Part shown: in pieces, positions 2,760-17,351 of the stretch
Numbering within the stretch: position 1 is the first letter of the stretch
Layout of the letters: each line of letters starts with the position of its first letter
Virus record (IMG/VR): IMGVR_UViG_3300026907_000016
Reading direction: 5' to 3' (one strand)
Length of the DNA: 51,207 nucleotides
Source of the DNA: a virus
Translations under genes and position numbers: made by a program
Notes under the pieces: model-generated
What the model saw: the letters and a program-made list of their open reading frames with translations, nothing else
Told to the model about the DNA's origin: nothing
Databases searched by the model: none

Positions 2760-3151
2760 TTCCACACCGCCTGCTTGATCTCGCGGATCATGTCGGGAAG
2801 GCTCATGTCCTTGCGCAGCTCGGCGTATGCAAACCAGGCGCGGACCAGTACCCAGGCTGGGAGGCCGCACACGAATATCAGGCCAGCCAGTGCAACCAGG
2901 CCAAGGTCATCCTGGGCCCAGTGCAGCAGGTCGAACCAGCGAATCACGAACGCGCCACCGGCCAGGCTCGACACCACAGTCGAGATCATGGCAACGACGA
3001 ACTCGCGCACCGTCTTGGGCAGAGTCATCGCCATTACGACGATGGTCACCAGCACGGCAGCAAGGGCGCCTAGGACACCGAGCTTGTACAGGGCAAGGCC
3101 GCCAACTGCTGTCGAGGCTGGTTCGGTCATTTCGCGGACACTCATAGGCAT
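2756..3151 (-). CDS. Putative holin (three TM segments, charged C-terminus)
   Basis: 131 aa. Hydrophobic stretches GGLALYKLGVLGALAAVLVTIVVMAM, FVVAMISTVVSSLAGGAFVI and LGLVALAGLIFVCGLPAWVLV, with tail AELRKDMSLPDMIREIKQAVWK. First gene after the late leader. Confidence 0.5.
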   Translation of the reverse strand: MPMSVREMTEPASTAVGGLALYKLGVLGALAAVLVTIVVMAMTLPKTVREFVVAMISTVVSSLAGGAFVIRWFDLLHWAQDDLGLVALAGLIFVCGLPAWVLVRAWFAYAELRKDMSLPDMIREIKQAVWK

Positions 3152-3500
3152 TTCCTGGCCCTTCGCCGGGCCGGCACTGCGTGGAATAAAAAAGTCAGCG
3201 GGCTGCTACGTGCGATTTAACCTGCGCCCTACTGGAAGGTTCTTTGGCAGGTACCACTTACATGACCAGTTTCAGCTGACAAGTGATGCTGGGGAGCAGC
3301 GGAGCAATAAGCACCCGCACGATTTGAGCATCGCCCTATCGGGCCAGCACTACCGGTACGACCAGCGTTCTAGGCTTGGCGGGTAATCGGCATCAGATTG
3401 CCGGTCTATCAACGGAATCCGAGCATTTCAGGCATCAAAGTGCCGAATAGGAAGCCCACCGGTATTCCCAACCTTTCGATGATATCGGCTGGTCGGCGGG

Positions 3501-3713
3501 CTAAATCGTGGCGCGAAGCTTGAGCAGGCAGCCAACGTAGATGGCATCTCGCGCTTCATCGCTCAAAGGATCTTGGATTGCCTGGACAGCACCAGCGCAG
3601 AACTCCATAGCGCTTAGATTCCTGTCTGACTGTTCCTGGCTGAACCGAGCCATGTAGTGATCGGCCGGAGAACACCCACAGAGCAAGAGGACCAGCATGC
3701 AGGACTTAAGCAT
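3501..3713 (-). CDS. Small lipoprotein (moron-like)
   Basis: 70 aa. MLKSCMLVLLLCGC has a lipobox LLCG|C. SD GAAGGAGG. Lower GC than the flanks, with ORF-free DNA on both sides. Confidence 0.55.
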   Translation of the reverse strand: MLKSCMLVLLLCGCSPADHYMARFSQEQSDRNLSAMEFCAGAVQAIQDPLSDEARDAIYVGCLLKLRATI

Positions 3714-3786
3714 GCGGCCTCCTTCGGCAATCTAGTGCCGATTTAGCGCTTATCGAGAGGTGTTATCGGCTTTCTAGTGCCGGAAA

Positions 3787-3818
3787 CGAAAAAGCCCCGA
3801 CATTTCTGCCAGGGCTTC
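3787..3818 (-). terminator. Intrinsic terminator downstream of the Q-like gene
   Basis: Minus strand reads GAAGCCCTGGCAGAAATGTCGGGGCTTTTTCGTTT: a 7-bp stem with one G-U pair, followed by a T-run. Confidence 0.55.
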
Positions 3819-3868
3819 GGGTGAGGTTTCTCACAATGACGAAACAGTGCCAAATTGCCCTTCAAATG

Positions 3869-4543
3869 TCAAGCGGCCTCTTCCTCTCGCTCTTTCAGGC
3901 GATCCACCACTTCAGATACCGGCGCGAGCGCTTTTGCGTCCAGGCGGTCAACGTGCTTGGCGAGCGTTTCCCAAACTGCCGCCCAGTCGCGCGACCAGTT
4001 GTCAGGATGCATGCGAACGCCCAGGCGATCCTCGATAAACATGCAGACTTCAACCGGAGACAGTCCAGGCCGACCGGCGACCATGCGCTTGTGCGACTGC
4101 AAGGCCGCCAAGGCCATCCAGTACGCGCGCTCGCGCTTTTTCTCATGCAGAGAGTCCAGGCCAGAGCCGAGCCATATCACGCCATGCGCGATGGAAAGGT
4201 CATTGCCATTCACGATTGGCGAGTACATGAAGTGCCCGAAATGCTGGAGCGTCTTCGGCAGGCTGTCGATTGCGTGCATGACAAGCCCAGCCGCAAGCAT
4301 GTGAGCGCACCTGGCCTCAGTAAGCCGACGCCCTGATCGCGTTTCCTGAACGCCACTGATACGAGCCGGATACGATTTGGCCACCTCCTTACCGTGCTCG
4401 TTCTCCAGCATGATGACGACCTTGCCGTCGCCGTCGCCGGTCTTTTTTCCCAACTTCGCCTGCTCCGCAGCTACAGCCATTACGGAGTCGCGGTTTTCGT
4501 GCATTGCATCGTGCCAAGCTTGGCGTGCTCCAATCAGTCTCAT
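3869..4543 (-). CDS. Hypothetical protein. Possible late-gene regulator (Q-like), judged by position only.
   Basis: 224 aa from the internal start MRLIGARQAWHD of ORF 3869..4942 (ATGA overlap with the upstream stop). Last gene before the terminator, late leader and holin. Confidence 0.5.
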   Translation of the reverse strand: MRLIGARQAWHDAMHENRDSVMAVAAEQAKLGKKTGDGDGKVVIMLENEHGKEVAKSYPARISGVQETRSGRRLTEARCAHMLAAGLVMHAIDSLPKTLQHFGHFMYSPIVNGNDLSIAHGVIWLGSGLDSLHEKKRERAYWMALAALQSHKRMVAGRPGLSPVEVCMFIEDRLGVRMHPDNWSRDWAAVWETLAKHVDRLDAKALAPVSEVVDRLKEREEEAA

Positions 4544-5679
4544 GCTGCTGCCCCCTTGAGCATGTCGGGTGAAATCGTCAGGCGCCCTACTTCGCCGTAT
4601 TGGCGATGGTAGGTAATCACCTTTGCGTCGCGTCCACTGATCCATCCTCCCCGGCTGGCGTATGCGTCTGCTGCAGCCAGGGTGCGGTGCTGCTCCACGA
4701 TCATCAGGTTGTTTTCCTTGATGTCGACGTGGTGTAGGTGGCCCATGTGGGCGTAGCTGTGCTTGGTGCGGCCGAACACGTCGCGGAACTTGGCCACGAA
4801 CACGTCTGAGACGTTGGCCGGCTTGCGGCGGTGCCCGTGGTGGAAGTACAGGGCAGTCTGTCCGAACTCGTAGCAATAGTAGGGATCGGGGCTGCGGTCG
4901 ACGGTAATGCGTGGCTCGTTCTCGTACAGAACGGCGAACCACTCGCGCAGCCAGACACTCGATGCCATGTCGTGGTTACCCTCGGCCATGAGCACGTGCA
5001 CGCGCTGGTGCTTGCTCAGCAGCATGTCGATGACCTGGCGCAGAACGCGGATTGCTACCCTGACCAGCTTCTGGAACCTGGTGTCGGCGTCCAGCAAGTG
5101 CCCGCTGCTGGGCGTGACAGCATCCAGGCCATCCCAGTGCATCAGGTCGCCAAGCTGTGCGAATACCGCAGTGTCTGCGTGCGGGGCCTGCTGAATGGCG
5201 CTGGCGAACCACGACACAAGCAGATCCTCGGCTTTGCGCAGGTCGTAGTCATCGCCCCGGGTTTCCTCATGCCAGGCCAGCATGCCCAAGTGATGGTCGG
5301 TGATCACGAAGCAGTTGAGCAGATCGGAGTTGCCGTGCGGCGGCTCAGACATCAGCGATACGCGCGGGATCTCCTCGCTCATGGCCTGGATTGCCTCCTG
5401 CATCAGGGCCATCTGGCGCTCATGGTCGATGCTCGACTTCACCCATTGAAGCTTTGGCTTGCCATCGGCGTCATAAAGCGTAGAGGTGCCTTTCAGATGG
5501 AAGCCATCCGGCACCATCTTGTGCATGTCGTGCTCGGGGCTGAACCCCTGACGAGCCAGCCTGGCCTTATGCTCGTAGACCCGGCGCTCATGCATGCCAA
5601 GCATCTCGGCGGCCTGTGAAACTGTGCGACCTTCAAGCGCCGCTTTGATCTCTTCGTCTGTCGCTTTGCGCGCTGCCAT
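4540..5679 (-). CDS. HTH plus calcineurin-like metallophosphoesterase
   Basis: 379 aa from MAARKATDEEIK (SD GGGGGAG). Motifs QLGDLMHWDG, AEGNHD, FHHGH and MGHLHH. Confidence 0.7.
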   Translation of the reverse strand: MAARKATDEEIKAALEGRTVSQAAEMLGMHERRVYEHKARLARQGFSPEHDMHKMVPDGFHLKGTSTLYDADGKPKLQWVKSSIDHERQMALMQEAIQAMSEEIPRVSLMSEPPHGNSDLLNCFVITDHHLGMLAWHEETRGDDYDLRKAEDLLVSWFASAIQQAPHADTAVFAQLGDLMHWDGLDAVTPSSGHLLDADTRFQKLVRVAIRVLRQVIDMLLSKHQRVHVLMAEGNHDMASSVWLREWFAVLYENEPRITVDRSPDPYYCYEFGQTALYFHHGHRRKPANVSDVFVAKFRDVFGRTKHSYAHMGHLHHVDIKENNLMIVEQHRTLAAADAYASRGGWISGRDAKVITYHRQYGEVGRLTISPDMLKGAAA

Positions 5680-13153: not shown

Positions 13154-13241
13154 CTCGCGAACTCCCGTTTTCTTTCGCGTGGCGCCATCGACTTGGCGTT
13201 GGCAACCTGTCATCACTAGATCAGCCGACAGGTGAAAACCC

Positions 13242-13472
13242 ATGCAACCGACCATCGAAACTCTCCAGGGCGAACTTCTTGCCCTTCGCTGCCACATCGC
13301 CGCCCTGATGGAGGCGCAGCCTTTGCAATCTCAGTTGCGGTTCCGGGCCAAGCTGGAATCCGCCGTGTTGCTTGTCCGTCCGTGCCAGCGTGGCGAGCGT
13401 CAGGACGGCTTTGATCAGGTGGTAACGTCGCTGGCGGTCAAACGGCGGCCTGCAGAACTTTCTGAGCAATAG
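13242..13472 (+). CDS. Candidate small ORF (76 aa) antisense within the cro-cII interval
   Basis: SD AGGTGA lies 6 nt before the ATG. MQPTIETLQGELLALRCHIAALMEAQPLQS... is helical. Overlaps the 3' end of cro by 35 nt, convergently. Confidence 0.35.
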   Translation: MQPTIETLQGELLALRCHIAALMEAQPLQSQLRFRAKLESAVLLVRPCQRGERQDGFDQVVTSLAVKRRPAELSEQ

Positions 13473-13707: not shown

Positions 13708-13782
13708 TTAGCTCACGGCTAACGAACAAGCAAGCACACATTTAGCTGAGCGCACATTTAGCAGCGAGCTAATCAATGACAA
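13708..13782. promoter_or_regulatory. OR-like operator cluster plus candidate PR
   Basis: TTAGCtcacgGCTAA (13708-13722), TTAGCagcgaGCTAA (13758-13772), and half-site TTAGCtgagcGCaca (13742-13756). Minus-strand TTGTCA-16 nt-TAAATG (13782..13755) overlaps an operator. Confidence 0.55.
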
Positions 13783-13791
13783 GATCTGCGA

Positions 13792-14511
13792 ATGGACATT
13801 TACGAAATCCGCAAGGCCAACCTGGTCGAGCTAATTGGCAATCGCCGAAAGAAGGAATGCGCAGACAAGTGGGAGCTGAACCCGGCTCACTTGAGCCAGA
13901 TCCTTTCCCTGAAAACCGAAAAGAACCTCGGCGACGACGTTGCGCGCCGGATCGAAGATAGAGAGGGACTGCCGCGTGGATGGCTAGATGCCTTGCGGCA
14001 TTCGGCTGCAGAAGCCGCCGAAGGCTTTACCCACAACGTGGTGGCATATGATCCTGAAGACGCAATGCCGGACGGGGCTGTTGCGATAAGCGAGTATCAA
14101 GTGAACTTCTCAGCCGGAAATGGACACCAGGCGCTCTACGAGATCATTGAGGAATCGGACCCGGCGATTTACAAGCTGTCGTGGTTCCGCGCTGAGCGGA
14201 TCAAGCCCGAGAAGTGCAAGCGCTTCAGGGTGAAGGGCGACAGTATGGAGACGACGCTATTCGACGGCGATTCAGTGCTGGTCAACATGGAAGAGAACGA
14301 GCCCACCAAGATCATTGACGGCAAGGTCTATGCACTGCGATACGGGAACGATCTACGCATCAAGCGGCTGTTCAAGAAGCTGGACGGAAGCCTTCGCCTG
14401 GTCAGCGATAACCAGGCCTACCCGATTGAAGACATCGCCGCAGATGTCGCCCAGGAACACATCACCATAATCGGCCGCGTGCGGGACAAGAGCGGGAAAG
14501 GCGGCCTCTGA
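13792..14511 (+). CDS. cI: CI-type repressor (HTH plus S24/LexA-like autopeptidase)
   Basis: 239 aa. C-terminal VKGDSMETTLFDGDSVLV...LRIKRL carries the Ser/Lys dyad blocks. Divergent from cro. Confidence 0.9.
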   Translation: MDIYEIRKANLVELIGNRRKKECADKWELNPAHLSQILSLKTEKNLGDDVARRIEDREGLPRGWLDALRHSAAEAAEGFTHNVVAYDPEDAMPDGAVAISEYQVNFSAGNGHQALYEIIEESDPAIYKLSWFRAERIKPEKCKRFRVKGDSMETTLFDGDSVLVNMEENEPTKIIDGKVYALRYGNDLRIKRLFKKLDGSLRLVSDNQAYPIEDIAADVAQEHITIIGRVRDKSGKGGL

Positions 14512-14534
14512 CCACCACTGACAAGGAGGTTGCC

Positions 14535-14924
14535 ATGCGCGCCGCCATTACGCTGTTAGCTGTTGCCATGATTGCCGGCTGTGCTCAACAGCCTAAACCT
14601 CCGCGCGCGCCGATTCATGTGGCGCCATCGCCAATATGCACGACTCCAGCGCAATGCTCTGCTGGCTGGCTCAAGGCGCACGACCAGCTGCAGACGATGA
14701 CCGGAATGCGCCTGGCTGTAGCCTCAGACACCTACATTGCCACCTACCCTATGCGCCGGCTTCCAAATATGGTCGGAGAGGCATACAAGATCGATAACGG
14801 CGACGGTACACATACCATCAAAGCACGTTTCACATGTCGGAATGGCTGCGATGGCCTGGACCAGAGCGCAGAGAACCTGTTCAACACTACCGTAGGGATG
14901 AGCATTAAGTACGGCGCACAGTGA
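14535..14924 (+). CDS. Lipoprotein, first gene of the cassette linked to cI
   Basis: 129 aa. MRAAITLLAVAMIAGC has a lipobox. SD AAGGAGG. Starts 23 nt after the cI stop. Confidence 0.7.
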   Translation: MRAAITLLAVAMIAGCAQQPKPPRAPIHVAPSPICTTPAQCSAGWLKAHDQLQTMTGMRLAVASDTYIATYPMRRLPNMVGEAYKIDNGDGTHTIKARFTCRNGCDGLDQSAENLFNTTVGMSIKYGAQ

Positions 14925-15061
14925 CCTGGCTACGCTTCTTCGATGCGCTTGCTAGGGGTGAGCGTTGGGCTTTGCGCCGCATGTTGGCCTGGCTAACGGT
15001 TGTGTTCGCTGCAGTTTTGTTTTCGATTTTGGCCGGATTGCATGAACCTGGCCACCTATAG
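14921..15061 (+). CDS. Small single-TM ORF (46 aa, below the track cutoff)
   Basis: GTG start overlaps the lipoprotein stop as GTGA. MTWLRFFDALARGERWALRRMLAWLTVVFAAVLFSILAGLHEPGHL*. Its stop abuts the next ATG. Confidence 0.35.
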   Translation: MTWLRFFDALARGERWALRRMLAWLTVVFAAVLFSILAGLHEPGHL

Positions 15062-15355
15062 ATGGAATCGGTAAAGGGAATGGCTGAGCCGGGATCAATA
15101 ACCATAAACGTTCTGCATCTGAACCTAGAGGACTGGCCCGAGGTCATAGCCGCTCTTGAGCGCCTTTTCTTATCCGTTTGGGATAGGTCGCCTACCCTAG
15201 CCACCGCAGTGATACTTCTGGCGCTTTTGATGCCATACTATTGGCGATGGTCTTGGCTGAAAACCTGGCGCAGGAGCTCTGATCTTGATAGGGCTGAAAA
15301 TGCGCACTGGCAGAGCCATAAGCAGGCCAGAAAGAAAGACGGGAGGCCGCGATGA
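15062..15355 (+). CDS. Hypothetical single-TM protein (97 aa)
   Basis: TM segment LATAVILLALLMPYYWRWSWL with a basic tail. ATGA overlap with the next gene. AT-richer DNA. Confidence 0.45.
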   Translation: MESVKGMAEPGSITINVLHLNLEDWPEVIAALERLFLSVWDRSPTLATAVILLALLMPYYWRWSWLKTWRRSSDLDRAENAHWQSHKQARKKDGRPR

Positions 15356-15858
15356 TCTTTGACATTTTACTTGGATCCGCCTGCGCTATCGGTGTGGTTC
15401 TGTATTGGAAGGTTTGTAGCATCAGGGCGCTCGCGATGCAGGAGATTGCAGTTGGCCGCCTCAAGGAGCTTTACGAAGACGCTGACGTGCCTCACACCGA
15501 AAAAGCCAGCGCTCATTTCACATATCTCATGGCTAGACACTGGTGGTTCATGCCAGCGGTTTTGCTTTTGGCGCCGTTCGTTCTTGCTTTTGCAGTTCTT
15601 TTTGATCAGAGAAGCATTTCTGCCTCTAAAAAAGCGGATGGTCAAAGCTCTGCAATGGATGCCATTGTTTTGATGTATTTTTCCAAGAACCCACTTATCG
15701 CAGCGTTTTCAGGCGCAGCCATGATGCTGATTTTGATACCATTCATGCTGATCGGCCTGTTCCTTGACAAGGTCAAGAGCATTCCAACACTTGTTGGCAC
15801 GATTGCGCTCATTGCAGCAAAGGCGGCGCCCAAAAACCTACATGCACGCCAGAACTAG
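15352..15858 (+). CDS. Multi-pass membrane protein (168 aa, about 4 TM)
   Basis: Hydrophobic stretches ILLGSACAIGVVLYW, WWFMPAVLLLAPFVLAFAVLF, LIAAFSGAAMMLILIPFMLIGLFL and LVGTIALIAA. A terminator follows. Confidence 0.6.
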   Translation: MIFDILLGSACAIGVVLYWKVCSIRALAMQEIAVGRLKELYEDADVPHTEKASAHFTYLMARHWWFMPAVLLLAPFVLAFAVLFDQRSISASKKADGQSSAMDAIVLMYFSKNPLIAAFSGAAMMLILIPFMLIGLFLDKVKSIPTLVGTIALIAAKAAPKNLHARQN

Positions 15859-15863
15859 AATAT

Positions 15864-15892
15864 AAGCCCCGCCCTCGCGGGGCTTTTATTTT
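15864..15892 (+). terminator. Intrinsic terminator
   Basis: AAGCCCCGCcctcGCGGGGCTTTTATTTT. Confidence 0.8.
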
Positions 15893-15943
15893 CCGCCCGT
15901 CACGCCAAAGGTCTACGCTGAAACCTTCACCCTGGAGGTTGCC

Positions 15944-16153
15944 ATGACAGACCCAGTTATCGCCCTGCTCTACCGCCTCAACCAAAACCAGAACGCTCTA
16001 GGCGCCGCCATTGAAGAACTGGCGATATGGGTCGAGCAGCGCGGATCGGTTGAAACCGCCTACCAGGCCAAACACCACTTGCATGTGCTGGTCGAGAACA
16101 GCGATGCCATTTCCGAGGCGCTTGCCGAGCTGATCGCCAGACAATCTACCTAG
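15944..16153 (+). CDS. Small helical hypothetical protein (69 aa) bracketed by two terminators
   Basis: The SD context GGAGGTTGCCATG is identical to that of the lipoprotein gene. Confidence 0.5.
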   Translation: MTDPVIALLYRLNQNQNALGAAIEELAIWVEQRGSVETAYQAKHHLHVLVENSDAISEALAELIARQST

Positions 16154-16170
16154 CCAAACCAGCCAATCAG

Positions 16171-16196
16171 AGCCCGCCTAGCGCGGGCTTTTTTGT
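16171..16196 (+). terminator. Intrinsic terminator
   Basis: AGCCCGCctagcGCGGGCTTTTTTG. Confidence 0.8.
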
Positions 16197-16253
16197 GCCT
16201 GCATGAAACGCCTTGCGCGCAAAAGATAACAGCGCAAATCGAAAAATCAGGCT

Positions 16254-16308
16254 TTAGCTAGAAATTTAGCTCAGAGCTATTGACGAGACTTTAGCGCATG
16301 GCTAAATT
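16254..16308 (+). promoter_or_regulatory. OL-like operator cluster plus candidate PL
   Basis: TTAGCgcatgGCTAA (16291-16305, perfect), TTAGCtcagaGCTAt (16266-16280), and weak TTAGCtagaaATTTA (16254-16268). TTGACG (16280-16285) -17 nt- TAAATT (16303-16308). Confidence 0.5.
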
Positions 16309-17275: not shown

Positions 17276-17351
17276 GCCGGCATAGCTCAGTAGGTAGAGC
17301 GGCGCACCTGTAATGCGCGTGTCGCGGGTTCGAGACCTGCTGCCGGCTCCA
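17276..17351 (+). tRNA. tRNA-Thr (anticodon UGU), with an unusual C at position 33
   Basis: Hand-folded cloverleaf: GCCGGCA/TGCCGGC acceptor, GCTC-AGTAGGTA-GAGC D arm, GCGCA-CCTGTAA-TGCGC anticodon arm, GCGGG-TTCGAGA-CCTGC T arm, and T-CCA. Confidence 0.75.

Follow-up and report, generated by a model that had tools for sequence, protein, structure and literature searches.

A conserved two-gene membrane cassette in the rexAB position of a Pseudomonas-type lambdoid prophage, a candidate for phage exclusion

Prophage-encoded exclusion was first discovered with rexAB, in the slot between cI and PL. Genes of this slot and small inner-membrane proteins such as SieA of phage P22 and Imm of phage T4 are the classic exclusion functions. 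SieA and Imm block genome translocation at the inner membrane, and RexB-type action, in lambda as in RexABpp of P. putida, is that of a membrane-depolarising pore. To our knowledge, the contents of the cI-PL slot are mostly unannotated in non-E. coli phages, and unknown passenger genes are common there. The present study concerns this slot in IMG/VR virus record IMGVR_UViG_3300026907_000016, a stretch of 51,207 nucleotides (nt) that we call the window, and in particular two adjacent genes, S and L, which code for small membrane proteins unrelated to SieA and Imm.

The prophage in the window is lambdoid and of the Pseudomonas/Ectopseudomonas type. The DNA of its cro-cI region matches Pseudomonas phages only, and its nearest genomic relatives are from E. 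composti and E. hydrolytica. The order OR-cI-passengers-terminator-OL/PL is the layout of lambda, with which it was compared directly. The original prediction had placed four lipoprotein/membrane genes behind cI, in the position of rexAB, and had treated them as one candidate exclusion or defence module. Its elements are all present: the four open reading frames (ORFs) and their couplings, the 23-nt gap after cI, the lipobox IAG/C and the terminator. The assignment to a rexAB slot is also borne out, in that operators bracket cI together with the passengers and the same gene pair is located between cI and N in an enterobacterial relative. The idea that the four genes travel as one cassette fails. 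When this was surveyed, the lipoprotein gene and the downstream genes recurred separately with other partners, and only the genes for 97 and 168 amino acids (aa), S and L, are a conserved unit.

The S-L cassette and its conservation

The cassette and the small ORF in front of it consist of the following features, given with their coordinates in the window and their strand.

14921..15061 (+): 46-aa ORF with a basic N-terminus and one transmembrane (TM) helix, in a GTGA overlap with the stop of the lipoprotein gene lipoA
15080..15355 (+): S, 91 aa from the conserved ATG (97 aa from ATG 15062); phrog_21491, E=1.1e-7
15352..15858 (+): L, 168 aa, 3-4 TM helices, in an ATGA overlap with S; phrog_19124, E=1.4e-12
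15864..15893 (+): intrinsic terminator closing the S-L cassette, a 9-bp hairpin with 7 GC followed by a U-run (15864-15885); -21.3 kcal/mol, z = -4.1

The three ORFs were compared codon by codon with their 82% identical copy in E. hydrolytica (locus L002). The in-frame dN/dS is 0.17 for the 46-aa ORF, 0.13 for the 97-aa gene (S) and 0.085 for the 168-aa gene (L); the values in the other two frames are 0.79 and 1.21, 1.24 and 1.27, and 1.69 and 2.55, respectively. Because the ratios are low only in frame, we take all three to be real genes under purifying selection. The 46-aa ORF is identical to its L002 copy in 38/44 aligned codons; the start codon of that copy is ATG, and it overlaps the stop codon of the upstream lipoprotein gene as ATGA. 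The 97-aa version of S was originally read from ATG 15062. This codon does abut the TAG stop of the 46-aa ORF, but an indel of 1 nt near 15070 shifts it out of the reading frame in L002. S probably begins at the conserved ATG 15080, behind AAGGGA, which gives a protein of 91 aa.

An exhaustive HMMER search with L resulted in 38 representatives in 1.84 billion proteins, all of them 161-176 aa long. Twelve loci with S and L were inspected (the window, L002, L018, L019, L024, L026/27, L025, L102-104, L105/106, L107, L022/23 and L100/101). An S protein of 77-97 aa is encoded directly upstream of L in 12/12 of these loci; identities to the window are 16-38% for S and 20-35% for L. The two genes are translationally coupled in the window by the ATGA overlap, with the Shine-Dalgarno sequence of L inside the end of S. 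The same holds elsewhere: in 11/11 loci checked the 3' end of S contains a GGAGG-type Shine-Dalgarno sequence for L, and the two genes usually overlap at ATGA. A GC-rich hairpin with a U-run follows within ~20 nt past L, again in 11/11 loci checked.

In nine of the S-L loci, which belong to Pseudomonas and enterobacterial lambdoid prophages, the pair follows a cI-type repressor gene oriented divergently from cro. The enterobacterial lambdoid locus L025 has the order cI, S, L, a small convergent DUF2767 gene and then N, upstream of cIII and kil; its S gene had previously not been called. Two Yersinia contexts differ from this, with S-L at the prophage end beside tail-fibre genes. The Yersinia locus L100 also has a PLD-like (PLDc_2) gene (4845-5381, -) between S-L and a tail-fibre assembly gene at the prophage end.

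The interval between cI and S differs among loci. It is either empty or codes for a soluble protein of 79 aa, a CsrA-like protein, a Sie-like OB-fold protein or lipoproteins. The CsrA-family gene belongs to a Pseudomonadaceae prophage (L018, 8445-8651, -; PF02599, E=5.5e-11), where it is found between the cI-type repressor and S-L. In the same position, L019 has a gene (2998-3618, -) for a membrane-anchored tRNA_anti-like OB-fold protein (PF12869, E=5e-17), which belongs to phrog_8545, 'superinfection exclusion Sie-like'.

The base composition of S-L also differs from that of its surroundings. In five loci the pair is 5-10 GC points under its flanks; the trend, in GC and in GC at third codon positions (GC3), is seen in the window, L002, L024, L025 and L102. 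The AT-rich stretch noted originally after the lipoprotein gene is real: GC in the window drops from ~0.57-0.60 to 0.47-0.49 across the 168-aa gene. L itself has a GC of 0.489 and a GC3 of 0.544, compared with a GC of 0.593 for the window and a GC3 of 0.717 for cI. Together, these results show that S-L and its terminator are a conserved, selected and portable cassette of ~0.8 kb with clear boundaries, and we take S-L as its functional unit.

The cassette is rare. L-like matches occurred in 4/401 genomes of a Pseudomonadaceae sample, two of the four being distant L-like genes without S, and the L family was found in 0/400 genomes of a class-level sample. No match was obtained with L and its enterobacterial version among 50,697 deposited phages (tblastn), or with the enterobacterial S-L pair among 5,426 complete E. 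coli genomes (blastn); a scan of IMG/VR with L found nothing. L020 (6779-7477) and L021 (5593-6081) code for more distant membrane proteins similar to L (E=1e-14 to 1e-17 with the family profile) and have no S partner. The L-like genes stand downstream of a winged-helix regulator, in what appear to be non-phage chromosomal contexts.

The S protein is acidic in its N-terminal part and has a conserved motif, W-D-[KR]-S-P or W/Y-D/A-K-S-P. Its single TM helix ends in Y..TW, and its C-terminal tail is rich in K/R, with an average of 11 K+R in the family alignment. L has been described as a protein of about four TM helices; three are clear hydrophobic helices and the fourth is only short. Its loop 1 is rich in K/R (mean 7.7 K+R). 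Conserved residues of L are Y18, W19, C22, W64, P68, N113 and P114; H-x-H forms the C-terminus of most relatives. Topology was assessed from hydrophobicity and charge distribution. By the positive-inside rule the basic tail of S would be cytoplasmic and its N-terminal part periplasmic. The K/R-rich loop 1 of L suggests that this loop is cytoplasmic and that L is oriented N-out, C-in. Both proteins are predicted to be located in the inner membrane.

No family had been recognized at the outset for any of the four products. This is still correct insofar as no described family matches; three of the four do match PHROG families (16082, 21491 and 19124 for lipoA, S and L), all without an assigned function. 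Enterobacterial members score 1e-36 and 3.5e-67.

A mosaic of passengers between cI and PL

The remaining features of the region are as follows.

13708..13772: two OR-type operator palindromes TTAGC-N5-GCTAA (at 13708/13758), identified as motif matches between the cro-like gene and cI
13792..14511 (+): cI-type repressor with helix-turn-helix (HTH) and S24 peptidase, 239 aa; Pfam PF00717, E=1e-19; phrog_4, phrog_6201
14535..14924 (+): lipoA, module 1, 129 aa, with the lipobox; phrog_16082, E=3e-8
14919..14939: left recombination joint, motif CTGGCTA(A/C)GCTTCT, just past the lipoprotein stop, common to the window, the sister phage and L002
15944..16153 (+): module 3, acidic 69-aa ORF; phrog_12397, E=4e-19
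16165..16200 (+): second intrinsic terminator, also the right recombination joint common to the sister phage; -19.1 kcal/mol, z = -3.4
16266..16308 (+): OL-type operator palindromes (at 16266/16291), overlapping a PL-like promoter TTGACG-17-TAAATT

The window has 4 matches to TTAGC-N5-GCTAA, compared with 0.8 expected. The stretch from cI to OL/PL is an immunity-region passenger slot with at least three independently acquired modules: (1) the lipoprotein gene, (2) the 46-aa ORF with S-L and its terminator, and (3) the 69-aa ORF with its own terminator.

The clearest comparison is with a sister prophage (IMG/VR locus L005, the same as L006 of E. composti LY1), in which cI is 100% and the lipoprotein 91% identical. 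Past position 14939 the sister carries a gene for a 183-aa lipoprotein instead, and homology resumes at 16152. Since a phage with an identical cI has this other gene here, with homology on both sides, window 14940-16151 is an exchanged segment. The earlier view that this DNA was acquired agrees with the absence of 14940-16151 from the sister and with the lower GC and GC3 there. A second comparison concerns L002, which is 82% identical to window 14919-15896, that is, to the trio of 46-aa ORF, S and L plus the terminator. At the left joint homology to L005 stops at 14939 and homology to L002 starts at 14919; the right joint is the second terminator, 16165-16200. The 69-aa ORF is inside the segment that the sister lacks and outside the stretch common with L002, which makes it a third module.

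The partners of these modules change from locus to locus. Relatives of lipoA (91% and 65% identity) are found behind cI in L003, L004 and L005, where the trio is absent; L003 and L004 combine them with a lipoprotein of 183/184 aa. In L002 the trio follows a different lipoprotein of 200 aa, and the immunity region differs, with an HTH repressor, DUF6932 and a 311-aa protein. In L107, S-L stands behind a lipoprotein of the 183 type and a 44-aa ORF with one TM helix. The latter was considered as a homologue of the 46-aa ORF; the similarity is not significant (shuffle p ~0.22) and it is a positional analogue only. The 46-aa ORF itself is lineage-specific and absent from distant S-L loci. Nine loci (L018, L019, L022, L024, L025, L026, L100, L102 and L105) have neither a lipoprotein gene nor the 46-aa ORF upstream of S-L. 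The rex slot is therefore occupied by a mosaic of passenger modules, each of them exchanged independently.

The lipoprotein gene begins with ATG 14535, 23 nt past the end of cI and behind an AAGGAGG Shine-Dalgarno sequence. Its product has a lipoprotein signal peptide, MRAAITLLAVAMIAG/C, as do Cor and Llp. In the family alignment G15, C16 and A17 are invariant, as are four further cysteines, which could form two disulfides. The protein is probably sorted to the outer membrane. Its family, phrog_16082, has 70 loci in IMG/VR and is widespread in enterobacterial prophages; a second lipoprotein gene usually comes after the lipoA-family gene, and relatives elsewhere are found in the nin region or flanked by tail genes similar to K and I of lambda. 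An AlphaFold2 (AF2) model with a mean predicted local distance difference test (pLDDT) score of 82 consists of a helix, four strands and a helix. A search of the PDB with this fold gave nothing significant: the best hits, generic KA1-like alpha/beta domains, were judged uninformative (E=7e-3, template modelling score <0.5). An Rz-like match (E=0.03) covers the signal peptide only. The lipoA of the window has no PHROG match to Cor or Llp. A Cor match of its E. coli relative (E=0.007) covers only residues 1-44, over the signal peptide.

Other lipoproteins of the slot (L005 5438-5989, L003 6435-6986, L002 4972-5574 and L107 3-329) have differing mature domains (phrog_6823, phrog_3152). They have a conserved C-terminal tail in common, ...LSYEEYQRRYRQIM (phrog_29962), and a signal peptide nearly identical to that of lipoA. 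The combination of a common tail and signal peptide with different mature domains suggests domain shuffling among the passenger lipoproteins of the cI-PL slot.

In the lysogen the passengers would be transcribed together with cI from the repressor promoter, judging from the 23-nt gap, the overlapping genes, the lack of a terminator and the lack of a convincing promoter of their own elsewhere. No terminator was found between cI and 15864 in the window. Consensus scans upstream of S in the window, L024 and L105 detected no sigma-70-like site beyond chance, which is weak evidence.

Several other observations were made in and around the slot. The 69-aa ORF (15944-16153) is placed between the two terminators, and its start context, GGAGGTTGCCATG, is the same as that of the lipoprotein gene at 14523-14537; the Pseudomonas phage phiAH14b has a stretch 78% identical to this region, annotated as hypothetical. 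The DUF6932 protein of L002 (E=3e-29) and the overlapping 311-aa protein without a known family are encoded at 3458-4850 (+), after the HTH repressor and before the lipoprotein and S-L; they may be another two-gene passenger or defence candidate. A plus-strand ORF of 76 codons, 13242-13472 (+), is antisense to the cro-cII interval, and its frame is kept open in L005 (3709-3939) and L002 (2456-2704). Window 13204-13451 is 88% identical to L002 DNA, although the flanking cro and repressor genes differ in L002. Finally, a tRNA-Tyr gene with anticodon GTA is present at 17276-17351 (ARAGORN; Rfam 61 bits).

Possible functions of S-L

We propose that S-L may be an anti-phage system not described before, with two inner-membrane components that have no relationship to RexAB, SieA or Imm. 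It would replace rexAB in the cI-PL slot of Pseudomonas and enterobacterial lambdoids and occupy the tail-fibre end in Yersinia prophages. We rate this proposal just short of an even call. A more specific version, which we favor tentatively and with somewhat less confidence, is that the lysogen expresses S-L as an inner-membrane complex which keeps superinfecting phages out, most likely through a block of genome entry. According to this model a transcript from the repressor promoter would carry both cI and S-L in the lysogen, and S and L would assemble into a small complex in the inner membrane. The complex would shield the lysogen there by blocking genome translocation of a superinfecting phage. 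The lipoprotein would act separately, at the level of the outer membrane or periplasm.

A number of results weigh against the exclusion model. The cI-PL slot also holds non-defence passengers, such as the CsrA-like regulator in L018, so that the position alone is no proof of defence. A complex of S and L is postulated from gene coupling only. The AF2 model of L is all-helical with low confidence (pLDDT 64.5), and Foldseek found nothing for it in BFVD at E<=0.001. Scans of Pfam and NCBIfam with all products gave nothing significant, with no RexA or RexB in Pfam even at E up to 1, and none of the five products matched a model of PADLOC-DB 2.0 at the same limit. In profile comparisons with hhalign the probability was 0.12% for the L family (39 sequences) against lambda RexB and 0.16% for S against lambda RexA; it was 0.16% against P22 SieA and 0.8% against SieB. 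The L profile had chance matches only among PDB sequences, to TM segments of receptor kinases.

The alternative that survives best is a non-defence role in lysogenic conversion or housekeeping, for example in envelope stress, modulation of a host transporter or of secretion, metal handling, or the timing of induction or lysis. It is in line with the absence of a defence-database match and with the other contents of the slot, namely the CsrA-like regulator and DUF6932 (L018 and L002). The conserved Cys22 in TM1 of L and the H-x-H end of most relatives would suit metal handling, and the S-less L-like genes beside a winged-helix regulator (L020, L021) occur in apparently non-phage chromosomal contexts. 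However, 12/12 S-L loci are in prophage passenger sites, and neighbors are often Sie-type or lipoprotein envelope proteins. Furthermore, the rare and patchy distribution (4/401 and 0/400 genomes) and the low GC are typical of arms-race cargo. We regard a non-defence role as unlikely, albeit as the most serious competitor.

It is also conceivable that S-L is an abortive-infection or toxin-antitoxin-like membrane pair, in which a pore made of L or of an S-L oligomer depolarises the membrane on sensed infection and S is the gate or antitoxin. Slot and orientation are those of rexAB, both L and RexB are small polytopic membrane proteins, and S is holin-like in being small, with one TM helix and a highly basic C-terminal tail. 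The small gene comes first and is translationally coupled to the second, as in type II toxin-antitoxin pairs. In addition, a RexAB-type system is found downstream of a cI-like repressor in P. putida: RexABpp of the P1 prophage, in which a DNA-binding protein similar to RexA has a 4-TM protein as its partner (PMC12894663). The cassette, however, has no RexA-like or other cytoplasmic sensor domain anywhere, and the comparisons of L with RexB and of S with RexA stay at 0.1-0.2% in hhalign, with no Pfam RexA/RexB at E up to 1. S and L are almost wholly membrane-embedded, so that a mechanism to sense a trigger is not evident. Regarding the holin-like appearance of S, neither S nor L has a PHROG lysis match, and S-L is in the immunity region and not in a lysis cassette beside an endolysin, which sets it apart from holin/antiholin pairs. 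A pair of this kind is improbable in our opinion.

Least credible, and in our view very improbable, is one envelope-spanning machine of the lipoprotein and the 46-aa, 97-aa and 168-aa proteins that works only as a whole: the coupling in the window is tight (GTGA overlap, abutting or near-abutting starts, ATGA overlap) and a small one-TM ORF overlaps the upstream lipoprotein stop just before S-L in the window, L002 and L107, but these three loci have different lipoprotein families, and the similarity between the 44-aa ORF of L107 and the 46-aa ORF is not significant. Moreover, L003, L004, L005 and 70 IMG/VR loci have lipoA and no S-L, and nine loci have S-L with neither a lipoprotein gene nor the 46-aa ORF upstream.

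Whatever the function of S-L, four unknown genes have been narrowed to a defined, conserved and portable two-gene cassette. The sister phage with the identical repressor is a natural control without the cassette, and the enterobacterial version suits direct testing in E. coli K-12. If S-L does exclude phages, it would add a new protein family to the few inner-membrane entry blockers or membrane effectors and would let annotation pipelines name three PHROG families that have no assigned function. Otherwise, S-L would be one more lysogenic-conversion cargo.

Comparison with known systems

The arrangement of S-L is closest to those of lambda RexAB and RexABpp. All three consist of two co-oriented genes between cI and OL/PL that end at a terminator, include a small polytopic inner-membrane protein, and are prophage-borne and variable between otherwise related phages. 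S-L differs in the partner, which for L is a one-TM protein of 77-97 aa; none of the four products in the window has a soluble domain of the size of RexA. L also has three clear TM helices, whereas RexB is a four-helix bundle.

L (168 aa) is similar in size to P22 SieA (164 aa), and like SieA it is prophage-encoded and predicted to be in the inner membrane, with expression in the lysogen presumed. SieA, in contrast, is the product of a single gene in the immI region that has no small TM partner and is not next to c2, and no homology between the proteins was found. The lipoprotein has its own counterparts in Cor (phi80, N15, HK022) and Llp (T5), which act as receptor blockers. Like these, lipoA is a small prophage lipoprotein, with relatives in classic passenger sites; its mature part is without homology to them and its predicted fold without a significant PDB match.

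Two further systems are more distant. The gp30/gp31 pair of mycobacteriophage Butters is a prophage-encoded defence that is said to be a two-gene unit near the repressor and to include a small polytopic membrane protein. It belongs to an unrelated host and phage group, and its partner protein is reportedly cytoplasmic. The olg1/olg2 exclusion genes of phage Fc02 were also considered as a counterpart of S-L. Because Fc02 is Mu-like and the arrangement is different (PMC9936078), the comparison is an analogy only.

As a genetic element, the cassette can be compared with the morons defined for HK97 and HK022 by Juhala, Hendrix and colleagues. It is likewise a discrete insertion that is absent from a sister phage, with an intrinsic terminator of its own, a deviant base composition and a position at a prophage-transcribed site. 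It may differ from a moron in that the consensus scans gave no sign of a separate promoter upstream of S, and it appears to ride on the repressor transcript. What is new here is an uncharacterised two-gene membrane cassette that would act, if at all, like the known immunity-region exclusion genes, with proteins that are unrelated to theirs.

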